DNA of 5,371 nucleotides from a virus. Lineage: Duplodnaviria; Heunggongvirae; Uroviricota; Caudoviricetes. Each line of letters opens with the position of its first letter. Position 1 is the stretch's first letter. Shown here one piece after another: positions 1-5,371 of this stretch. A program made the position numbers and the translations under genes. The stretch lies in IMG/VR virus record IMGVR_UViG_3300029738_000110. One strand, given 5' to 3'. Under the pieces are notes generated by a model, which was not told the origin of the DNA, did no database searches, and was given only the letters and a program-made list of their open reading frames with translations.

Positions 1-935
1 GGGTTGACGCCGGAAGAATCAGAGAACAGATACCGTTTTTACTGTAAAACCGTGGCCAATATTACTTGACCACTACAAAGGATGCCAACGATAAATGGAA
101 TGCCATGTGGGCTGTCAAAATTGAGCAGACCAAAGACGGCAAACATTATGTCGCGGGTATTGGCCTCAGCATGGAGGACACGGAAGAAGGCAAGCTGAGC
201 CAGTTTCTGGTTGCCGCTAACCGTATCGCGTTTATTGACCCGGCAAACGGGAATGAAACGCCGATGTTTGTGGCGCAGGGCAACCAGATATTCATGAACG
301 ACGTGTTCCTGAAGCGCCTGACGGCCCCCACCATTACCAGTGGTGGAAATCCACCGGCATTTTCCCTGACATCAGACGGAAAGCTGACCGCTAAAAATGC
401 GGATATCAGTGGCAGAGTGAATGCGAACGCCGGGACGCTCAACAATGTCACGGTAAATGAAAACTGTACGATTAAGGGCATGCTGGAGGCGACTCAGGTC
501 AGAGGTGACTTCGTTAAAGCTGTATCCAAATCATTCCCGAAACAGGCTGGTACGTGGGGTAACACGGAAACACCAAACGGGACGGTTACAGTCACCATCA
601 GCGATGATCATAACTTTGACCGTCAAATCATTATTCCGCCCATTATCTTTAACGGAATAGCGTATAGCGATCCGGGAAGTGGTAATAACCCGGGAGGTAC
701 AAGATACACGGGTTATGGTTTTGAAGTTCGCAAAAACGGTGTATTAATCGCATCCAGAGAAACTAAAGGGGCCATTCCCGGTAGCTACAGTGCGGTTATT
801 GATATGCCGAGTGGCAGGGGAAGCGTCACTCTGGAGTTTAAGGTTTTCCATAAAGGCAATCAGTGGGCAGGTAATATCACCGACTGTACGGTGATTGTGA
901 CCAAAAAAGCCGCTTCCGGCATCAGTATTCGTTGA
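1..935 (+). CDS. J: 3' portion of host-specificity protein J (central tail fibre / tail tip), partial at the window edge. The frame is discontinuous: frame 1 is open from 1 to 66 and stops at TGA 67-69, while the long frame-3 ORF (66-935) has an in-frame TAA at 45-47. Possible frameshifted pseudogene.
   Basis: The 289-aa translation ([91 protein letters not shown]...GISIR) matches, from memory, the C-terminal region of lambda J-family proteins. There is no ATG or Shine-Dalgarno at the ORF start (TTG at 66 only), consistent with a gene that begins upstream. It sits directly upstream of lom and stf, as in lambda. Confidence 0.8.
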
Positions 936-1004: not shown

Positions 1005-1076
1005 ATGCGTAAACTTTATGCCGCCATTTTGTCCGCAGCCATTTGTCTGGCCGTATCCGGTGCGCCTGCATGGGCA
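1005..1076 (+). other. Sec signal peptide of Lom (predicted signal peptidase I cleavage after AWA)
   Basis: A basic N-terminus (MRK), a hydrophobic core (LYAAILSAAICLAV) and an A-W-A motif precede the mature N-terminus SEHQ. Confidence 0.7.
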
Positions 1077-1604
1077 TCTGAACATCAGTCCACGCTGAGC
1101 GCGGGGTATCTTCATGCCCGGACCAACGTTCCCGGCAGTGATGATCTGAACGGGATTAACGTGAAATACCGTTATGAGTTTACGGATACGCTGGGGCTGG
1201 TGACGTCATTCAGCTATGCAGGAGACAAGAATCGCCAGCTGACCCGTTACAGCGATACCAGCTGGCATGAAGATTCCGTGCGTAACCGCTGGTTCAGCGT
1301 GATGGCGGGGCCGTCTGTGCGCGTGAATGAATGGTTCAGCGCGTATGCGATGGCGGGTATGGCTTACAGCCGTGTTTCGACTTTTTCCGGGGATTACCTT
1401 CGCGTAACTGACAACAAGGGGAAAACGCACGATGTGCTGACCGGAAGTGATGACGGTCGCCACAGCAACACGTCTCTGGCGTGGGGGGCTGGCGTGCAGT
1501 TTAACCCGACCGAATCCGTGGCCATTGATATTGCTTATGAAGGCTCCGGTAGTGGTGACTGGCGCACTGACGGTTTCATCGTGGGTGTCGGTTATAAATT
1601 CTGA
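1005..1604 (+). CDS. lom: Lom, an Ail/Lom/PagC/OmpX-family outer-membrane beta-barrel protein (lambdoid moron)
   Basis: The 199-aa ORF has an N-terminal signal peptide (MRKLYAAILSAAICLAVSGAPAWA, then SEHQ) with an AXA cleavage site. It has alternating amphipathic beta-strand character and ends in the OMP-typical aromatic ...GVGYKF. Its position between J and stf is the same as lambda lom. Confidence 0.9.
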   Translation: MRKLYAAILSAAICLAVSGAPAWASEHQSTLSAGYLHARTNVPGSDDLNGINVKYRYEFTDTLGLVTSFSYAGDKNRQLTRYSDTSWHEDSVRNRWFSVMAGPSVRVNEWFSAYAMAGMAYSRVSTFSGDYLRVTDNKGKTHDVLTGSDDGRHSNTSLAWGAGVQFNPTESVAIDIAYEGSGSGDWRTDGFIVGVGYKF

Positions 1605-1668: not shown

Positions 1669-4065
1669 ATGGCAGTAAAGATTTCAGGTGTACTGAAAGA
1701 CGGCACAGGAAAACCGGTACAGAACTGCTCAATCCAGCTGAAAGCAAAACGTAACAGCACCACGGTGGTAGTGAACACGCTGGCCTCAGAAAATCCGGAT
1801 GAAGCCGGGCGTTACAGTATGGATGTTGAGTATGGCCAGTACAGCGTTATCCTGCTGGTTGAAGGTTTTTCGCCTTCACATGCCGGGACCATCACCGTGT
1901 ATGAAGATTCTAAGCCGGGGACGCTGAATGATTTTCTCGGTGCCATGACGGAAGATGATGTCATGCCGGAGGCATTGCGTCGTTTTGAGGAAATGGTGGA
2001 AGAAGCGGCACGCAACGCTGAAGCCGCCTCTCAGAGCGCAGCGGCGGCAAAGAAATCCGAAACTGCAGCGGCATCATCGAAGAACGCGGCGAAAACCTCA
2101 GAAACGAATGCAGCTAATAGTGCACAGGCGGCAGCGACCTCAAAGACTGCATCGGCAAACTCCGCGACAGCAGCCAAAAAATCAGAAACCAACGCGAAAA
2201 ATAGCGAGACAGCCGCAAAGACGAGCGAAACCAACGCAAAGTCCAGCCAGACGGCAGCGAAAACCAGCGAAACGAATGCCAAAGCCAGTGAAACTGCGGC
2301 AAAAAACAGCCAGGTTGCAGCAGCCCAAAGCGAGAGCGCGGCAGCCGGTTCTGCGACTTCAGCAGCTGGATCAGCAACTGCTGCGGCTAACAGCCAGAAA
2401 GCTGCGAAGACGAGTGAAACTAACGCAAAGTCCAGCCAGACGGCAGCGAAGACCAGCGAAACGAATGCCAAAGCCAGCGAAACTGCGGCGAAAAACAGTC
2501 AGGATGCAGCAGCCCAAAGCGAGAGTGCTGCAGCTGGTTCTGCAAGCGCGGCGGCTGCTTCTGCCACTGCATCAGCCAACAGTCAAAAAGCAGCAAAAAC
2601 CAGTGAAACCAATGCAAAGACAAGCGAGACTGCAGCGGCGAACTCGGCGAAAGCATCGGCAGCAAGCCAGACAGCAGCTAAAGCAAGTGAAGACGCAGCC
2701 AGAGAGTATGCAAGTCAGGCAGCAGAGCCGTATAAATATGTCTTACAGCCACTGCCTGATGTGTGGATACCGTTTAACGATTCACTGGATATGATTACGG
2801 GCTTTTCGCCGTCATATAAAAAAATTGTTATTGGTGATGATGAAATAACGATGCCTGGCGACAAGGTTGTTAAGTTTAAACGCGCATCAACTGCCACATA
2901 TATCAATAAATCAGGCGTATTTAGTGTTGCTAAAATTGATGAGCCACGATTTGAAAAAGAAGGTTTATTGATTGAAGGACAGCGCACTAACTATTTTGTT
3001 AAATCCAATACTCCCGCTGAATGGACGAGTACCAGCAATATCGATAAAACTAATAATGGTGTTGATGAATTTGGTTTTTCATATGCCAAAATGCGAACAA
3101 AAGATAATATGACAGGACAATCATCTGCACTTAGTCTGCATACATGCAGTGCATCCCGGGGGATTGATGTTAGTGGCGATAATAAGTATTGCACTGTTTC
3201 ATGCAGGGTTAAAGCTCCTGATGGTCTTCGTTGTCGTTTGCGTTTTGAAAAATACGATGGGTCGGTTTATACATTTTTAGGAGATGCTTATTTAACTTTC
3301 GGAACTCTGATAATAGAAAAAACTGGCGGAGCAGCCAATAGAATAGCAGCTACTGCAACTAAAGATCCGGTTACAGGGTGGATTTTCTATGAGGCAACTA
3401 TAGAAGCTGTTGAAGGTGAAACCTTAATTGGCGCAATGATTCAGTATGCGCCGAAAAAAGGTGGTATAACTGAAGCGGGAGATTATATTTACCTTGCAAC
3501 ACCACAATTTGAAAACGGCGGATGTGCTTCATCTTTTGTTATTACGACAACTGCACCCGCAACCCGCTCCAGTGATATGGTGACGATCCCAACTGAAAAT
3601 AATATCTATAATAGACCGCTTACGTGTCTTGTCGAGGTTAATAGAAATTGGGGCGATATTCCTCCTAATGTAGCACCGCGTATTTTTGATTTTTCTGGTG
3701 TGCCACCTATTGAGTCAATTACATACGCTTTTAACACAACTGAGAAATATTACGGTCAGCTTTATATGCAAACTTATAAAGCGTCGACAAGTACTTACGT
3801 TTCTAGTGTGTTTGCTGGTCGAGCTGATGTTCGAAAATTCATTGGTGGTTTTAATATTTATTCTGATGGTACTAAACGAGTAGTTTCTAACGGTGAGGCT
3901 ACTAAAACTATGAAAACGGAGTGGACGGGCGTAAAAACACGGACCTTTATTCGAATTGGAGGTCAAGCCACATCGGGAACTCGTCATCTATTCGGCCATT
4001 TGAGAAATCTTCGTCTCTGGCATAAAGAATTAACTGATGCGCAAATGGGGGAGAGTATTAAATGA
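1669..4065 (+). CDS. stf: Side tail fibre protein (Stf family). It has a lambda-like N-terminal attachment domain, an Ala/Ser/Thr-rich repetitive shaft, and a divergent AT-rich distal (receptor-binding) domain.
   Basis: The 798-aa ORF starts MAVKISGVLKDGTGKPVQNCSIQLKAKRNSTTVVVNTLASENPDEAGRYSMDVEYGQYSVIL..., which matches the N-terminus of lambda Stf as I recall it. A G-rich Shine-Dalgarno (GGGGGGAA, 1660-1667) lies just upstream of the ATG. The central part is an SETNAK/TAAKTS repeat shaft. The C-terminus ends ...FGHLRNLRLWHKELTDAQMGESIK. Confidence 0.9.
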   Translation: MAVKISGVLKDGTGKPVQNCSIQLKAKRNSTTVVVNTLASENPDEAGRYSMDVEYGQYSVILLVEGFSPSHAGTITVYEDSKPGTLNDFLGAMTEDDVMPEALRRFEEMVEEAARNAEAASQSAAAAKKSETAAASSKNAAKTSETNAANSAQAAATSKTASANSATAAKKSETNAKNSETAAKTSETNAKSSQTAAKTSETNAKASETAAKNSQVAAAQSESAAAGSATSAAGSATAAANSQKAAKTSETNAKSSQTAAKTSETNAKASETAAKNSQDAAAQSESAAAGSASAAAASATASANSQKAAKTSETNAKTSETAAANSAKASAASQTAAKASEDAAREYASQAAEPYKYVLQPLPDVWIPFNDSLDMITGFSPSYKKIVIGDDEITMPGDKVVKFKRASTATYINKSGVFSVAKIDEPRFEKEGLLIEGQRTNYFVKSNTPAEWTSTSNIDKTNNGVDEFGFSYAKMRTKDNMTGQSSALSLHTCSASRGIDVSGDNKYCTVSCRVKAPDGLRCRLRFEKYDGSVYTFLGDAYLTFGTLIIEKTGGAANRIAATATKDPVTGWIFYEATIEAVEGETLIGAMIQYAPKKGGITEAGDYIYLATPQFENGGCASSFVITTTAPATRSSDMVTIPTENNIYNRPLTCLVEVNRNWGDIPPNVAPRIFDFSGVPPIESITYAFNTTEKYYGQLYMQTYKASTSTYVSSVFAGRADVRKFIGGFNIYSDGTKRVVSNGEATKTMKTEWTGVKTRTFIRIGGQATSGTRHLFGHLRNLRLWHKELTDAQMGESIK
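2215..2592 (+). repeat. In-frame tandem direct repeat of two 189-bp units (63 aa each) in the stf shaft, followed by a partial third unit to about 2645. It contains nested 27-33 bp sub-repeats encoding (A)AKTSETNAK-like motifs.
   Basis: Copy 1 begins gcaaagacgagcgaaaccaacgcaaagtccagccagacggcagcg at 2215. Copy 2 begins gcgaagacgagtgaaactaacgcaaagtccagccagacggcagcg at 2404, exactly 189 bp later. The copies are near-identical and differ mainly at synonymous positions plus a few substitutions. Confidence 0.85.
4047..4055 (+). promoter_or_regulatory. Shine-Dalgarno for the 93-aa ORF, embedded in the 3' end of stf
   Basis: GGGGGAGAG lies 6-7 nt upstream of the ATG at 4062. The ATG overlaps the stf stop (ATGA at 4062-4065). 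Confidence 0.55.
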
Positions 4066-4343
4066 AAGATTTAACACTCAAATTTGCAGACAGGGCCGAC
4101 TTTTCGGCCTTTATGGAGAGCATTGGCTATTATGATGACGAGTCGATGCAGGATGATATTCTTATTGACGTGATAGGTAATGTGTACAAAGAAACCGGAG
4201 AACTTACTGAAGATGGCGAGCCGGTATGTGTTAAGGAGGACGGATATTTTGTAAATGTGCGCATCATTAATGATTCGCAAATATCGTCATTATTCGATGA
4301 ATACGTGGTTGCTGTTGAGCATCAACTCCGTAGCTGGATGTGA
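4062..4343 (+). CDS. Small acidic hypothetical protein (93 aa), translationally coupled to stf. Candidate tail-fibre accessory or chaperone protein, unrelated to Tfa.
   Basis: The ORF has an ATG start with an upstream Shine-Dalgarno and a 4-bp ATGA overlap with the stf stop. It is Asp/Glu-rich (MKDLTLKFADRADFSAFMESIGYYDDESMQDDILIDVIGNVYKETGELTEDGEPVCVKEDGYF...). It shares the AT-rich composition of the stf distal domain. I recognise no family. Confidence 0.6.
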   Translation: MKDLTLKFADRADFSAFMESIGYYDDESMQDDILIDVIGNVYKETGELTEDGEPVCVKEDGYFVNVRIINDSQISSLFDEYVVAVEHQLRSWM

Positions 4344-4352: not shown

Positions 4353-5057
4353 ATGGCTACATCGACAGTAATTCCTGATGACATCAAAACGCTAAAGGGA
4401 GATGTCAGTAAGGCAAAGGAAGATATTTCCTCAATTAACGTAAAAGTATCAACGCTTCAGACTGATATGGACAGTGCAAAGCAGGATATCAGTACCAGAT
4501 ACACAAAAACAGAAGTGGATAATAAGCTGAAAAACAAAGTGGAAGTGAACGATCTGGAAAGTGGTCGTTATGGCGGAGATTTTTACCCGCTGACTGGCCG
4601 TGAAGCGTTTTATTTATGGGGATTGGGCACAACTACAGCGGCGGCAAATCTTTATCTTAATCCTGACCCTGCAATTTCGTCTGTGCTGCGGTCAACATCG
4701 TCTATCCGCTATAAACATTCAGTAGAGACGATAGATTCAGAGCACGCCGATCTCATTTTCAGGATGCGCCCTGTGTGGTACAGGTCGCAATGCGAAAATG
4801 ACAGGCGTGACTGGGGATTCTATGGATTGATTGCCGAGGAAGTTGGAGAAATTGCCCCTCAGTTTGTTCACTGGCGACCAGCCAACGAAGATGATGCACC
4901 GGAAACCATTTCCAGCAATGGCCTTGTTGCCGAAGGTGTAATGTACGAACGTCTGGTTGTTCCACTGATTCACCATATCCAGAAGCTGACTGAAAGAGTT
5001 GATGAACTTGAGTCAGAATTAAAGTTGTTATCCGTTTCCCGAAGCGATATCGGATAA
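4353..5057 (+). CDS. Tail-fibre-like protein with an N-terminal coiled coil and a C-terminal intramolecular chaperone domain (peptidase S74 / endosialidase-chaperone type), 234 aa
   Basis: The N-terminal 70 aa or so are heptad-like and charged (DIKTLKGDVSKAKEDISSINVKVSTLQTDMDSAKQDISTRYTKTEVDNKLKNKVEV). The C-terminal half carries the characteristic chaperone-domain pattern: SSIRYK (aa 116-121, nt 4698-4715; compare the S-D-x-R-x-K autocleavage motif), then VETID..ADLIFRMRPVWYR, then GFYGLIAEEVGEIAPQFV (compare GxIAQEVxxVxPExV), then GVMYERLVVPLIHHIQKLTERVDELESEL (compare the conserved Y..L..LI.AIQEL coiled-coil tail). Confidence 0.75.
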   Translation: MATSTVIPDDIKTLKGDVSKAKEDISSINVKVSTLQTDMDSAKQDISTRYTKTEVDNKLKNKVEVNDLESGRYGGDFYPLTGREAFYLWGLGTTTAAANLYLNPDPAISSVLRSTSSIRYKHSVETIDSEHADLIFRMRPVWYRSQCENDRRDWGFYGLIAEEVGEIAPQFVHWRPANEDDAPETISSNGLVAEGVMYERLVVPLIHHIQKLTERVDELESELKLLSVSRSDIG

Positions 5058-5062
5058 AGGAG
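5056..5062 (+). promoter_or_regulatory. Strong Shine-Dalgarno (AAGGAGG) for the 97-aa ORF
   Basis: The consensus AAGGAGG lies 5 nt upstream of the ATG at 5068. Confidence 0.65.
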
Positions 5063-5067
5063 GCGTA

Positions 5068-5361
5068 ATGGATATAACACCTTTCCTTCATGCACTTTGT
5101 GCTGTGGCTGCGCAGGTACTGGTTGGTCTTTTTACCGGAAACTGGGCTTACGGGGCGATAGCTGGTTGTACGTTCTTCATTGCGCGTGAACATACCCAGG
5201 CAGAATATCGCTGGATTGAAATGTTCGGGCATGGCAAGCGTATGAATATGCCGTGGTGGGGCGGTTTTGATCCGCGTGCGTGGGATGTGGCAAGCCTGAT
5301 GGATTTTGCTGTGCCGGTGGTGGCGTGTCTGCTGGTCTGGCTGTTGGTTAATCGTGGGTGA
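5068..5361 (+). CDS. Small predicted inner-membrane protein (97 aa, two hydrophobic helices), function unknown. Candidate prophage moron.
   Basis: It has an ATG start with a consensus Shine-Dalgarno. Hydrophobic segments lie at about aa 6-36 (FLHALCAVAAQVLVGLFTGNWAYGAIAGCTFFIA) and aa 76-95 (LMDFAVPVVACLLVWLLV). They are separated by a polar, Trp-rich loop (EYRWIEMFGHGKRMNMPWWGGFDPRAWD). Confidence 0.65.
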   Translation: MDITPFLHALCAVAAQVLVGLFTGNWAYGAIAGCTFFIAREHTQAEYRWIEMFGHGKRMNMPWWGGFDPRAWDVASLMDFAVPVVACLLVWLLVNRG

Positions 5362-5371
5362 AAAAAGGTGA

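Follow-up and report, generated by a model that had tools for sequence, protein, structure and literature searches.

A small three-helix membrane protein (predicted) encoded at the 3' border of phage receptor-binding cassettes: gene context, conservation and candidate functions

Several phages encode small envelope proteins, in or beside their tail and receptor-binding genes, that block phage entry; Cor, Llp, gp15 of HK97 and SieA of P22 are examples. Cor (phi80, N15, HK022 and T1) and Llp (T5) are outer-membrane lipoproteins specific for FhuA and are thought to protect both the cell and the progeny. HK97 gp15, P22 SieA and T4 Imm, likewise small and phage-encoded, reside in the inner membrane and act at the stage of DNA entry; the gp15 gene is embedded in the tail region, and gp15 and SieA are morons expressed from the prophage. 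Serotype-conversion proteins such as P22 GtrA and the small polymerase inhibitors of epsilon15 and D3, whose genes lie at the tailspike end, alter the glycan receptor. Of these, the GtrA-like bactoprenol-sugar flippases are approximately 120 aa in length with four transmembrane domains (TMDs), belong to PF04138 and are accompanied by adjacent gtrB and gtrC genes. Membrane proteins of lysis can also adjoin fibre genes: T4 t, a holin of 218 aa that has one TM segment and an established role in lysis, is encoded beside g37-g38. Class I holins possess three TMDs, short loops and a highly charged C-terminal tail.

The gene described here encodes a 97-aa protein and was found in a viral DNA stretch of 5,371 nucleotides, referred to below as the window. 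The sequence itself is not new, the family having been catalogued as an anonymous PHROG. Its three-helix architecture, linkage to receptor-binding cassettes across phage lineages, mosaic boundary and selected chromosomal orphan copies appear to be undescribed, as does the lack of a family assignment despite a prevalence of approximately 35% in E. coli.

Gene order in the window and constraint on the 97-aa ORF

The window represents the distal part of a lambdoid late operon in which all genes lie on the + strand (Table 1). The side tail fibre gene, stf, heads a co-oriented string of genes that terminates in the gene for the 97-aa protein. The first-pass annotation of this DNA had placed an ORF with a consensus Shine-Dalgarno (SD) sequence at the 3' end of the fibre module, and each of these points was confirmed: the frame is initiated by ATG, and the SD sequence, read directly from the DNA, shares a base with the TAA stop (5055-5057) of the upstream ORF and ends 4 nt before the start codon.

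The ORF is a real gene under selection and an artefact is excluded. That it is beyond chance follows from a match to the PHROG 1443 profile (E 3.5e-59; residues 1-96 aligned to profile positions 1-96 of 97), from 583 homologues of constant length (approximately 95-102 aa), from 344 clusters at 50% identity, and from a median dN/dS of approximately 0.11 with no internal stops in 40 distinct E. coli alleles. The gene was found in 1924 of 5426 complete E. coli genomes (approximately 35%), with a median of two and a maximum of seven copies per carrier. E. coli CFSAN061763 has an identical copy of the ORF, which belongs to a prophage at Qin/ydfJ and has a tfa remnant and pinQ downstream. The region past the window in this prophage (9314-10112 of the retrieved locus) comprises a truncated tail-fibre-assembly fragment, the pinQ invertase, ydfK and a truncated ydfJ, such that the prophage occupies the Qin locus and retains the debris of an invertible fibre segment.

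Table 1. Features of the window and of the 97-aa protein encoded at its 3' end.
Feature	Position	Strand	Description	Basis or remark
J, C-terminus	66-935	+		
lom	1005-1604	+		
stf	1669-4065	+	Side tail fibre Stf, 798 aa	Conserved prophage tail-fibre N-terminal domain
p93	4062-4343	+	93-aa acidic ORF, annotated as of unknown function	PHROG 1361/18574; overlaps the stf stop by 4 nt
S74 ORF	4353-5057	+	234-aa ORF, Peptidase_S74 intramolecular-chaperone domain	10-nt gap to the 97-aa ORF
Mosaic block	5056-5371	+	Gene-sized block	Approximately 95-96% nucleotide identity to phage 21 and wild lambda relatives
Shine-Dalgarno	5057-5063	+	AAGGAGG	Read directly from the sequence
97-aa CDS	5068-5361	+	Predicted three-helix integral membrane protein	PHROG 1443; no Pfam family
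Helix 1	5077-5136	+	Residues 4-23, hydrophobic; near-invariant H8 and Q16	AlphaFold2 model, alignments
Helix 2	5143-5226	+	Residues 26-53	AlphaFold2 model, alignments
Interfacial loop	5227-5286	+	Residues 54-73 (20 residues), Trp/Gly/Arg-rich, highly conserved	Alignments, AlphaFold2 model
Helix 3	5287-5355	+	Residues 74-96, most hydrophobic segment; conserved S76, D79, P83 and C87	Hydropathy, alignments, AlphaFold2 model

The genes between stf and the 97-aa ORF bear signs of a composite history. The 93-aa product, p93, is a recurrent partner of the 97-aa protein in E. coli, Leclercia P1-like and Comamonas phages. Homologues of p93 follow Laminin_G_3-type fibres on a Leclercia P1-like plasmid (29% identity, E 8e-14) and in a Comamonas prophage, in both cases directly upstream of the 97-aa gene, and p93 is probably a fibre-specific partner or chaperone. 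The 234-aa S74 ORF matches only positions 1147-1384 of the 1385-aa fibre family PHROG 3299 and is without the N-terminal attachment region. It resembles a leftover of an older cassette made up of an S74 fibre and the 97-aa gene, or a distal portion of that cassette encoded on its own, ahead of which p93 and the current C-terminus of stf would have been inserted. The C-terminal half of stf (2869-4065) has a GC content of 0.40 and a GC3 of 0.26, as against 0.53 and 0.48 for the N-terminal half, a difference indicative of recent import of the receptor-binding domain. Within its N-terminal third, stf contains long near-repeats rich in Ala, Ser, Thr and Lys (AAKTSETNAK...).

Nucleotide identity to phage 21 and Lambda_ev087 begins exactly at position 5056, at the SD sequence, and the fibre genes upstream of this point differ. 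In the source genome the identity extends approximately 76 nt beyond the stop codon of the 97-aa ORF. GC3 is 0.51 in the 97-aa ORF, up from 0.26-0.44 across the fibre C-terminus and the ORFs for p93 and the S74 domain. The boundary at the SD sequence and the jump in GC3 together argue that the gene is a discrete mosaic unit, fixed while the cassette upstream is swapped. A constant gene beside a hypervariable cassette is likely to serve as a recombination anchor for fibre exchange.

A crude consensus scan, which is indicative only, found nothing resembling a promoter on the + strand between lom and the 97-aa gene, and a similarly crude and indicative scan found no terminator-like site between stf and the gene or after it. 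GC-rich hairpins with T-runs flank lom at approximately 956-980 and 1631-1658; a gene bracketed by terminators in this way has the classical layout of a moron. The absence of signals of its own, the 10-nt gap to the preceding ORF, the overlap or abutment with upstream genes elsewhere and the embedding among tail genes in P2-like prophages point to late co-expression with the tail genes, and the structure of the operon would thus predict late expression rather than expression in the lysogen. The first-pass annotation had proposed a lysogenic-conversion or superinfection-exclusion factor, with transcription in the lysogen as a check, and had itself named strictly late, lytic transcription with a virion-associated product among the outcomes that would speak against this. 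A classical moron is argued against here, the 97-aa gene being translationally coupled and having neither a promoter nor a terminator of its own, as compared with the terminator-bracketed lom.

Predicted fold, conserved residues and family relations

Kyte-Doolittle hydropathy exceeded 1.6 in 19-residue windows at residues 3-24 and 71-97, and the N-terminal hydrophobic stretch is 36 residues long. Modelling with AlphaFold2 from an alignment of 87 sequences (pLDDT 95.2, pTM 0.81) yielded helices at residues 4-23, 26-53 and 74-96, the first two of which form a tight hairpin with a two-residue turn, G24-N25. The hydropathy profile and the model agree with the small integral membrane protein proposed in the first-pass annotation; the two hydrophobic helices that it described become three. 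The first 14 residues of helix 2 are hydrophobic and pair with helix 1, and the distal part continues beyond the hydrophobic zone as an invariant amphipathic motif, A-R40-E41-H-T-Q44-A-E46-Y-R-W-I. The loop that follows has the pattern G-x-G-K-R58-x-N-M-P-W-W-G-G-F-D68-P-R-x-W72. The polar loop rich in Trp, Gly and Arg that had been noted on first reading is present: four of the six Trp among the 97 residues fall within residues 40-73, together with G54, G56, G65 and G66 and with R40, R48, R58 and R70.

Among 66 homologues of 32-55% identity, R40, E41, W72 and P83 were invariant and H8, Q44, A45, E46 and R58 were conserved in at least 90%. D68, D79, C34 and C87 were additionally near-invariant in the closer set of homologues, D68 and D79 only there. 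The three-helix membrane fold is a confident prediction of the model. By helix register, the polar residues H8, R40-E41, Q44, E46, R58 and W72 probably cluster at one face of the membrane, and D68 and D79 probably lie at the same face in those closer relatives.

The segment spanning residues 40-73 has a K/R count of 5.4 compared with 0.1 for the hairpin turn, and under the positive-inside rule these counts would place residues 40-73 inside, in the cytoplasm, and the turn outside, an N-in/C-out topology; the C-terminal tail has a mean K/R count of 0.65. A GenBank note in the phage 21 record gives a TMHMM result of '2 TMDs, N-in, C-in', and two homologues with N-terminal extensions give hints that conflict with each other. 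A cleavable signal peptide or lipoprotein signal, suggested by a SignalP note in the phage 21 record and by the sequence IAGC at residues 31-34, was rejected, as C34 is not conserved across the family; cleavage is also contradicted by the packing of helix 1 within the confident three-helix model.

No match to the 97-aa query was obtained in Pfam, NCBIfam or PADLOC, and relaxing the Pfam threshold to E<=0.1 added only a sub-threshold match to PhoR. A Pfam scan of the 66 diverse homologues likewise assigned no family and gave scattered sub-threshold matches only. No sequence relative was found in the PDB and no fold match was obtained, and full-text literature searches found no paper on PHROG 1443 or the 97-aa protein. 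The first-pass annotation had suggested a search for remote homologues; the 583 proteins described above have PHROG 1443, annotated as "unknown function", as the only family label. Individual homologues are named 'hypothetical protein', 'putative membrane protein' or, in one case, 'Ybl63'.

Phage and chromosomal contexts

The gene follows a receptor-binding gene on the same strand near-universally, whatever the fold of that gene's product, and is often translationally coupled to it. Lineages in which it occurs include lambdoid, P22-like, P2-like, P1-like, Kuttervirus-like and jumbo phages as well as phages of Comamonas and Desulfovibrio. A jackhmmer search with the S74 domain of the window missed divergent S74 domains elsewhere, and neighbouring genes were typed by Pfam scans. 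Among 80 E. coli IMG/VR loci, 34 carry p93, the 234-aa S74 ORF and the 97-aa gene, approximately 22 carry a 346-aa S74 ORF (PF13884, E 6e-14) before the gene, and in approximately 22 p93 directly precedes it. In phage 21 and wild relatives of lambda the order is stf, a 92-aa ORF and the 97-aa gene, followed on the opposite strand by unrelated cargo. This cargo is the sitABCD iron/manganese transporter operon, complete in phage 21 (6386-9835) and Lambda_ev087 (5386-8835 of the retrieved loci), and represents metabolic or virulence cargo in the position of the lambda b region.

Outside this group, the P22-like JEP4 has a tailspike gene overlapping the 97-aa gene by 4 nt and followed by int. In P2/HP1-like prophages of Leclercia and Aeromonas an S74 fibre gene abuts the gene, with further tail genes beyond. 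The Leclercia P1-like plasmid encodes two Laminin_G_3 fibres, each with a p93-like ORF, leading to the 97-aa gene and then to the LydA holin and LydB. An intact copy lies between two tailspike genes on a Salmonella contig of 160 kb; this contig also has baseplate-wedge and Tail_spike_N genes and is Kuttervirus-like on our reading. The gene is preceded by J and a pectate-lyase spike in Citrobacter, by a spike combining pectate-lyase and S74 domains in Desulfovibrio, by a lectin fibre with a 4-nt overlap in Chelativorans, and by J or a tail protein and then a small ORF in Comamonas. In an Aeromonas podovirus and a virulent jumbo phage of the same genus it lies among or near tail genes, the jumbo phage copy being intact. 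Across such contexts the 97-aa protein remains 60-97% identical while the adjoining receptor-binding proteins differ in fold.

Decayed copies were found in two virulent phages. Dhillonvirus HC6 contains an unannotated remnant (3965-4159 of the retrieved locus) behind an intact S74 fibre gene, and Kuttervirus KFSST3 contains a remnant (4980-5105 of the retrieved locus) behind a probable tailspike gene annotated as 'hypothetical protein'; both remnants are unannotated and are interrupted by stop codons or truncated, and the fibres of the two phages presumably work. The remnants are evidence that the gene is dragged with fibre and spike cassettes into virulent phages, where it then decays.

Orphan copies are present at syntenic non-phage chromosomal loci in Aeromonas, Leclercia, Silvania and sphingomonads. 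In Aeromonas rivipollensis the gene (8001-8309 of the retrieved locus) lies between genes for a pirin and a RIO1 kinase and near two lipid A acyltransferase genes, and A. aquatica, A. media and A. taiwanensis share this locus. Downstream of one Leclercia orphan are a Meth_synt_2-like gene and an ABC transporter, and orphans in Silvania and Leclercia adjoin a porin and PFOR. In sphingomonads ligA precedes the gene, or cfa or ftsZ follows it, and pnp is a further neighbour; a Comamonas orphan is located between TerB and GGDEF genes. Clustering of the neighbours revealed no conserved partner gene, with ligA and cfa recurring in three loci each, and in high-GC alphaproteobacterial loci this clustering was contaminated by spurious antisense ORFs. 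The orphans are under purifying selection (ω approximately 0.1-0.2 at dS 0.3-0.9). Those of gamma-proteobacteria nest among phage copies in a neighbour-joining tree, which at 95 residues is weak evidence. The nesting suggests that the gene may have been domesticated repeatedly by bacteria.

Candidate functions and comparison with known systems

We tentatively favour, as the most likely class and at somewhat less than an even chance, an autonomous envelope-directed factor of exclusion or protection, exclusion being meant in the broad sense. The 97-aa protein would be an autonomous accessory of the inner membrane in which the TM1/TM2 hairpin, the Trp-rich interfacial loop and TM3 form a compact bundle, and its gene a self-contained mosaic unit parked 3' of receptor-binding-protein cassettes. 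It would be co-produced with the receptor-binding proteins from the late tail operon, by means of its own strong ribosome binding site or by translational coupling, and would not serve the fibre. Instead it may bind some conserved constituent of the host envelope and so shield the cell during infection or lysogeny, perhaps together with the progeny, from further phage entry or adsorption. The inner-membrane location, the side of the loop, the envelope target and the protective phenotype are all parts of this scheme that we infer.

Exclusion or protection is favoured by analogy with Cor, Llp, gp15, SieA and Imm. Independence from the fibre is argued for by the mosaic boundary at the SD sequence, the selected orphans and the remnants behind intact fibre and spike genes, and a host-protective accessory role fits both the selected orphans that lack a fibre gene and the decay in two virulent phages. 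Against this stand the lack of a PADLOC match, the operon layout for late expression and the intact copies in the virulent jumbo Aeromonas phage and the Kuttervirus-like contig. Known exclusion proteins are usually phage-specific and poorly conserved, whereas here catalytic-looking invariant His, Arg, Glu and Gln residues are kept from sphingomonads to E. coli, and this deep conservation and invariant polar cluster fit an enzyme or a binder of a conserved ligand at least equally well. Receptor-specific masking is unlikely, the same protein lying beside receptor-binding proteins of unrelated folds in up to seven copies per genome. Carriage is evidently no bar to acquiring further phages with the same gene, given a median of two and up to seven prophage copies. 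Of the exclusion or conversion factor suggested in the first-pass annotation, the general class remains the most likely, with the orphans and the decay in its favour; expression in the lysogen as a moron is not supported by the sequence.

Alternatively, the protein may modulate the glycan and lipid-carrier pathways of the envelope by binding or acting on a universally conserved lipid-linked intermediate, such as undecaprenyl-phosphate-linked glycans, or on initiating transferases. The display of surface polysaccharide would be altered as a result, or nascent glycans at the membrane would be kept from trapping new fibres and spikes, which would explain why the gene travels with glycan-targeting receptor-binding proteins of any fold. 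The identifiable neighbours all bind or cleave glycans (S74-chaperoned fibre, pectate-lyase spikes, P22-type tailspike, ConA-like lectin), and P22-like phages carry the gene between tailspike and int, an interval described in the literature as the O-antigen conversion locus. An invariant polar cluster with a Trp-rich interfacial loop would suit the binding of lipid head groups, conservation across genera regardless of receptor fits a conserved ligand, and there are selected cellular copies, that of Aeromonas being close to the two lipid A acyltransferase genes. We nonetheless consider this explanation unlikely: no homology was found to GtrA, Oac, Wzy-inhibitor or any lipid-carrier enzyme families, 97 aa is below the size of any known glycan-modifying enzyme, there is no conserved partner gene, and classical LPS is absent from sphingomonads. 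A bolder proposal, to which we give a quite low probability, is that of an ancient, hitherto unrecognised family of miniature three-helix membrane proteins whose conserved polar cluster is catalytic or ligand-binding. Captured behind glycan-targeting cassettes by phages of many morphotypes and repeatedly domesticated by bacteria, its members would target a universal lipid-linked intermediate of the envelope, or the associated machinery, governing the display of receptor glycans or keeping nascent fibres and spikes off membrane glycans.

A role in the maturation of the fibre or tailspike, as a membrane-anchored helper for folding, trimerisation or attachment of the adjoining receptor-binding protein, is in our judgement very doubtful. 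The gene occupies a position typical of tail-fibre chaperones, is translationally coupled to or abuts the preceding gene in several lineages, lies among tail genes in P2-like prophages and recurs with p93 and S74 chaperone domains. However, the 97-aa protein is nearly constant while its neighbours have unrelated folds, S74 fibres bring their own chaperone, orphans remote from phage genes are under purifying selection, and in two virulent phages a pseudogene lies behind intact fibre or spike genes. To our knowledge no fibre chaperone is an integral membrane protein, and the 97-aa protein differs from the known ones in this respect. The selected orphans and the remnants in virulent phages equally disfavour the fibre-associated factor that the first-pass annotation had offered as its alternative. 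Finally, a late-expressed holin, antiholin or lysis-timing factor is highly improbable: a length of approximately 100 aa and three helices resemble class I holins, the gene lies directly upstream of the LydA holin and LydB on the P1-like plasmid, one of the 66 homologues has a weak match to Phage_holin_8 (E 0.0036) and T4 offers the precedent of a holin gene beside fibre genes, but the query matches no holin family in Pfam or PHROG, a complete S/R/Rz lysis cassette is to be expected elsewhere in lambdoid genomes with the gene, neither the long structured loop, with its invariant polar residues, nor the short C-terminal tail of low charge is holin-like, and selected chromosomal orphans are hard to square with a lethal pore former.

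Roughly one in three complete E. coli genomes contains this gene, typically within several prophages, and it has no name, Pfam family or literature. Its position behind receptor-binding genes, a linkage that spans siphoviruses, myoviruses, podoviruses, phage-plasmids and large virulent phages, makes it a candidate for a general accessory of phage host recognition. If it does block entry or remodel the envelope, it would affect prophage-mediated phage resistance and hence phage therapy, and would be relevant to engineered particles with swapped fibres, into which whatever sits 3' of the fibre cassette is often transferred as well.

The autonomous envelope-directed factor that we favour resembles Cor and Llp in being a small envelope protein, by prediction, whose gene lies beside tail or receptor-binding genes. 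It differs from them as a three-helix integral membrane protein that remains constant beside many different receptor-binding proteins and also has homologues in cellular genomes. Neither similarity in sequence or fold to Cor or Llp nor a corresponding Pfam or PHROG match was found, and a lipobox with a mature Cys is lacking, there being no positively charged n-region and no conservation of the IAGC sequence in distant homologues. With gp15, SieA and Imm it shares the character of a small phage membrane protein, probably of the inner membrane, and with gp15 a location in the tail region. Unlike gp15 and SieA the gene is without its own promoter or terminator, and its invariant polar residues and conservation across proteobacterial classes are atypical of gp15, SieA and Imm. 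The query has no Pfam or PHROG match to the families of Imm, SieA or gp15, and none was obtained at E<=1 among the 66 diverse homologues.

Like the serotype-conversion proteins, the 97-aa protein is small, hydrophobic and encoded at the tailspike end of the genome, the JEP4 copy lying between tailspike and int. Unlike them, the same protein accompanies spikes of different specificity, and unlike GtrA systems its gene is co-oriented with and overlaps the tailspike gene instead of forming a separate unit. Its three helices, the absence of a Pfam match and the absence of gtrB/gtrC-like neighbours in the contexts examined place it outside the GtrA family. Membership of the Tfa/Caudo_TAP or DUF4376 chaperones is not indicated for a predicted integral membrane protein with no Pfam match and with selected orphans that have no fibre gene. 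It has three helices as do class I holins, but residues 40-73 form a conserved 34-residue segment, the C-terminal tail carries few K/R residues and no holin match was found. Compared with T4 t, the 97-aa protein shows no homology and belongs to a family that also occurs outside phages; like t, it is encoded by a conserved membrane-protein gene at the 3' border of a highly exchangeable receptor-binding cassette, where it may provide homology for swapping.
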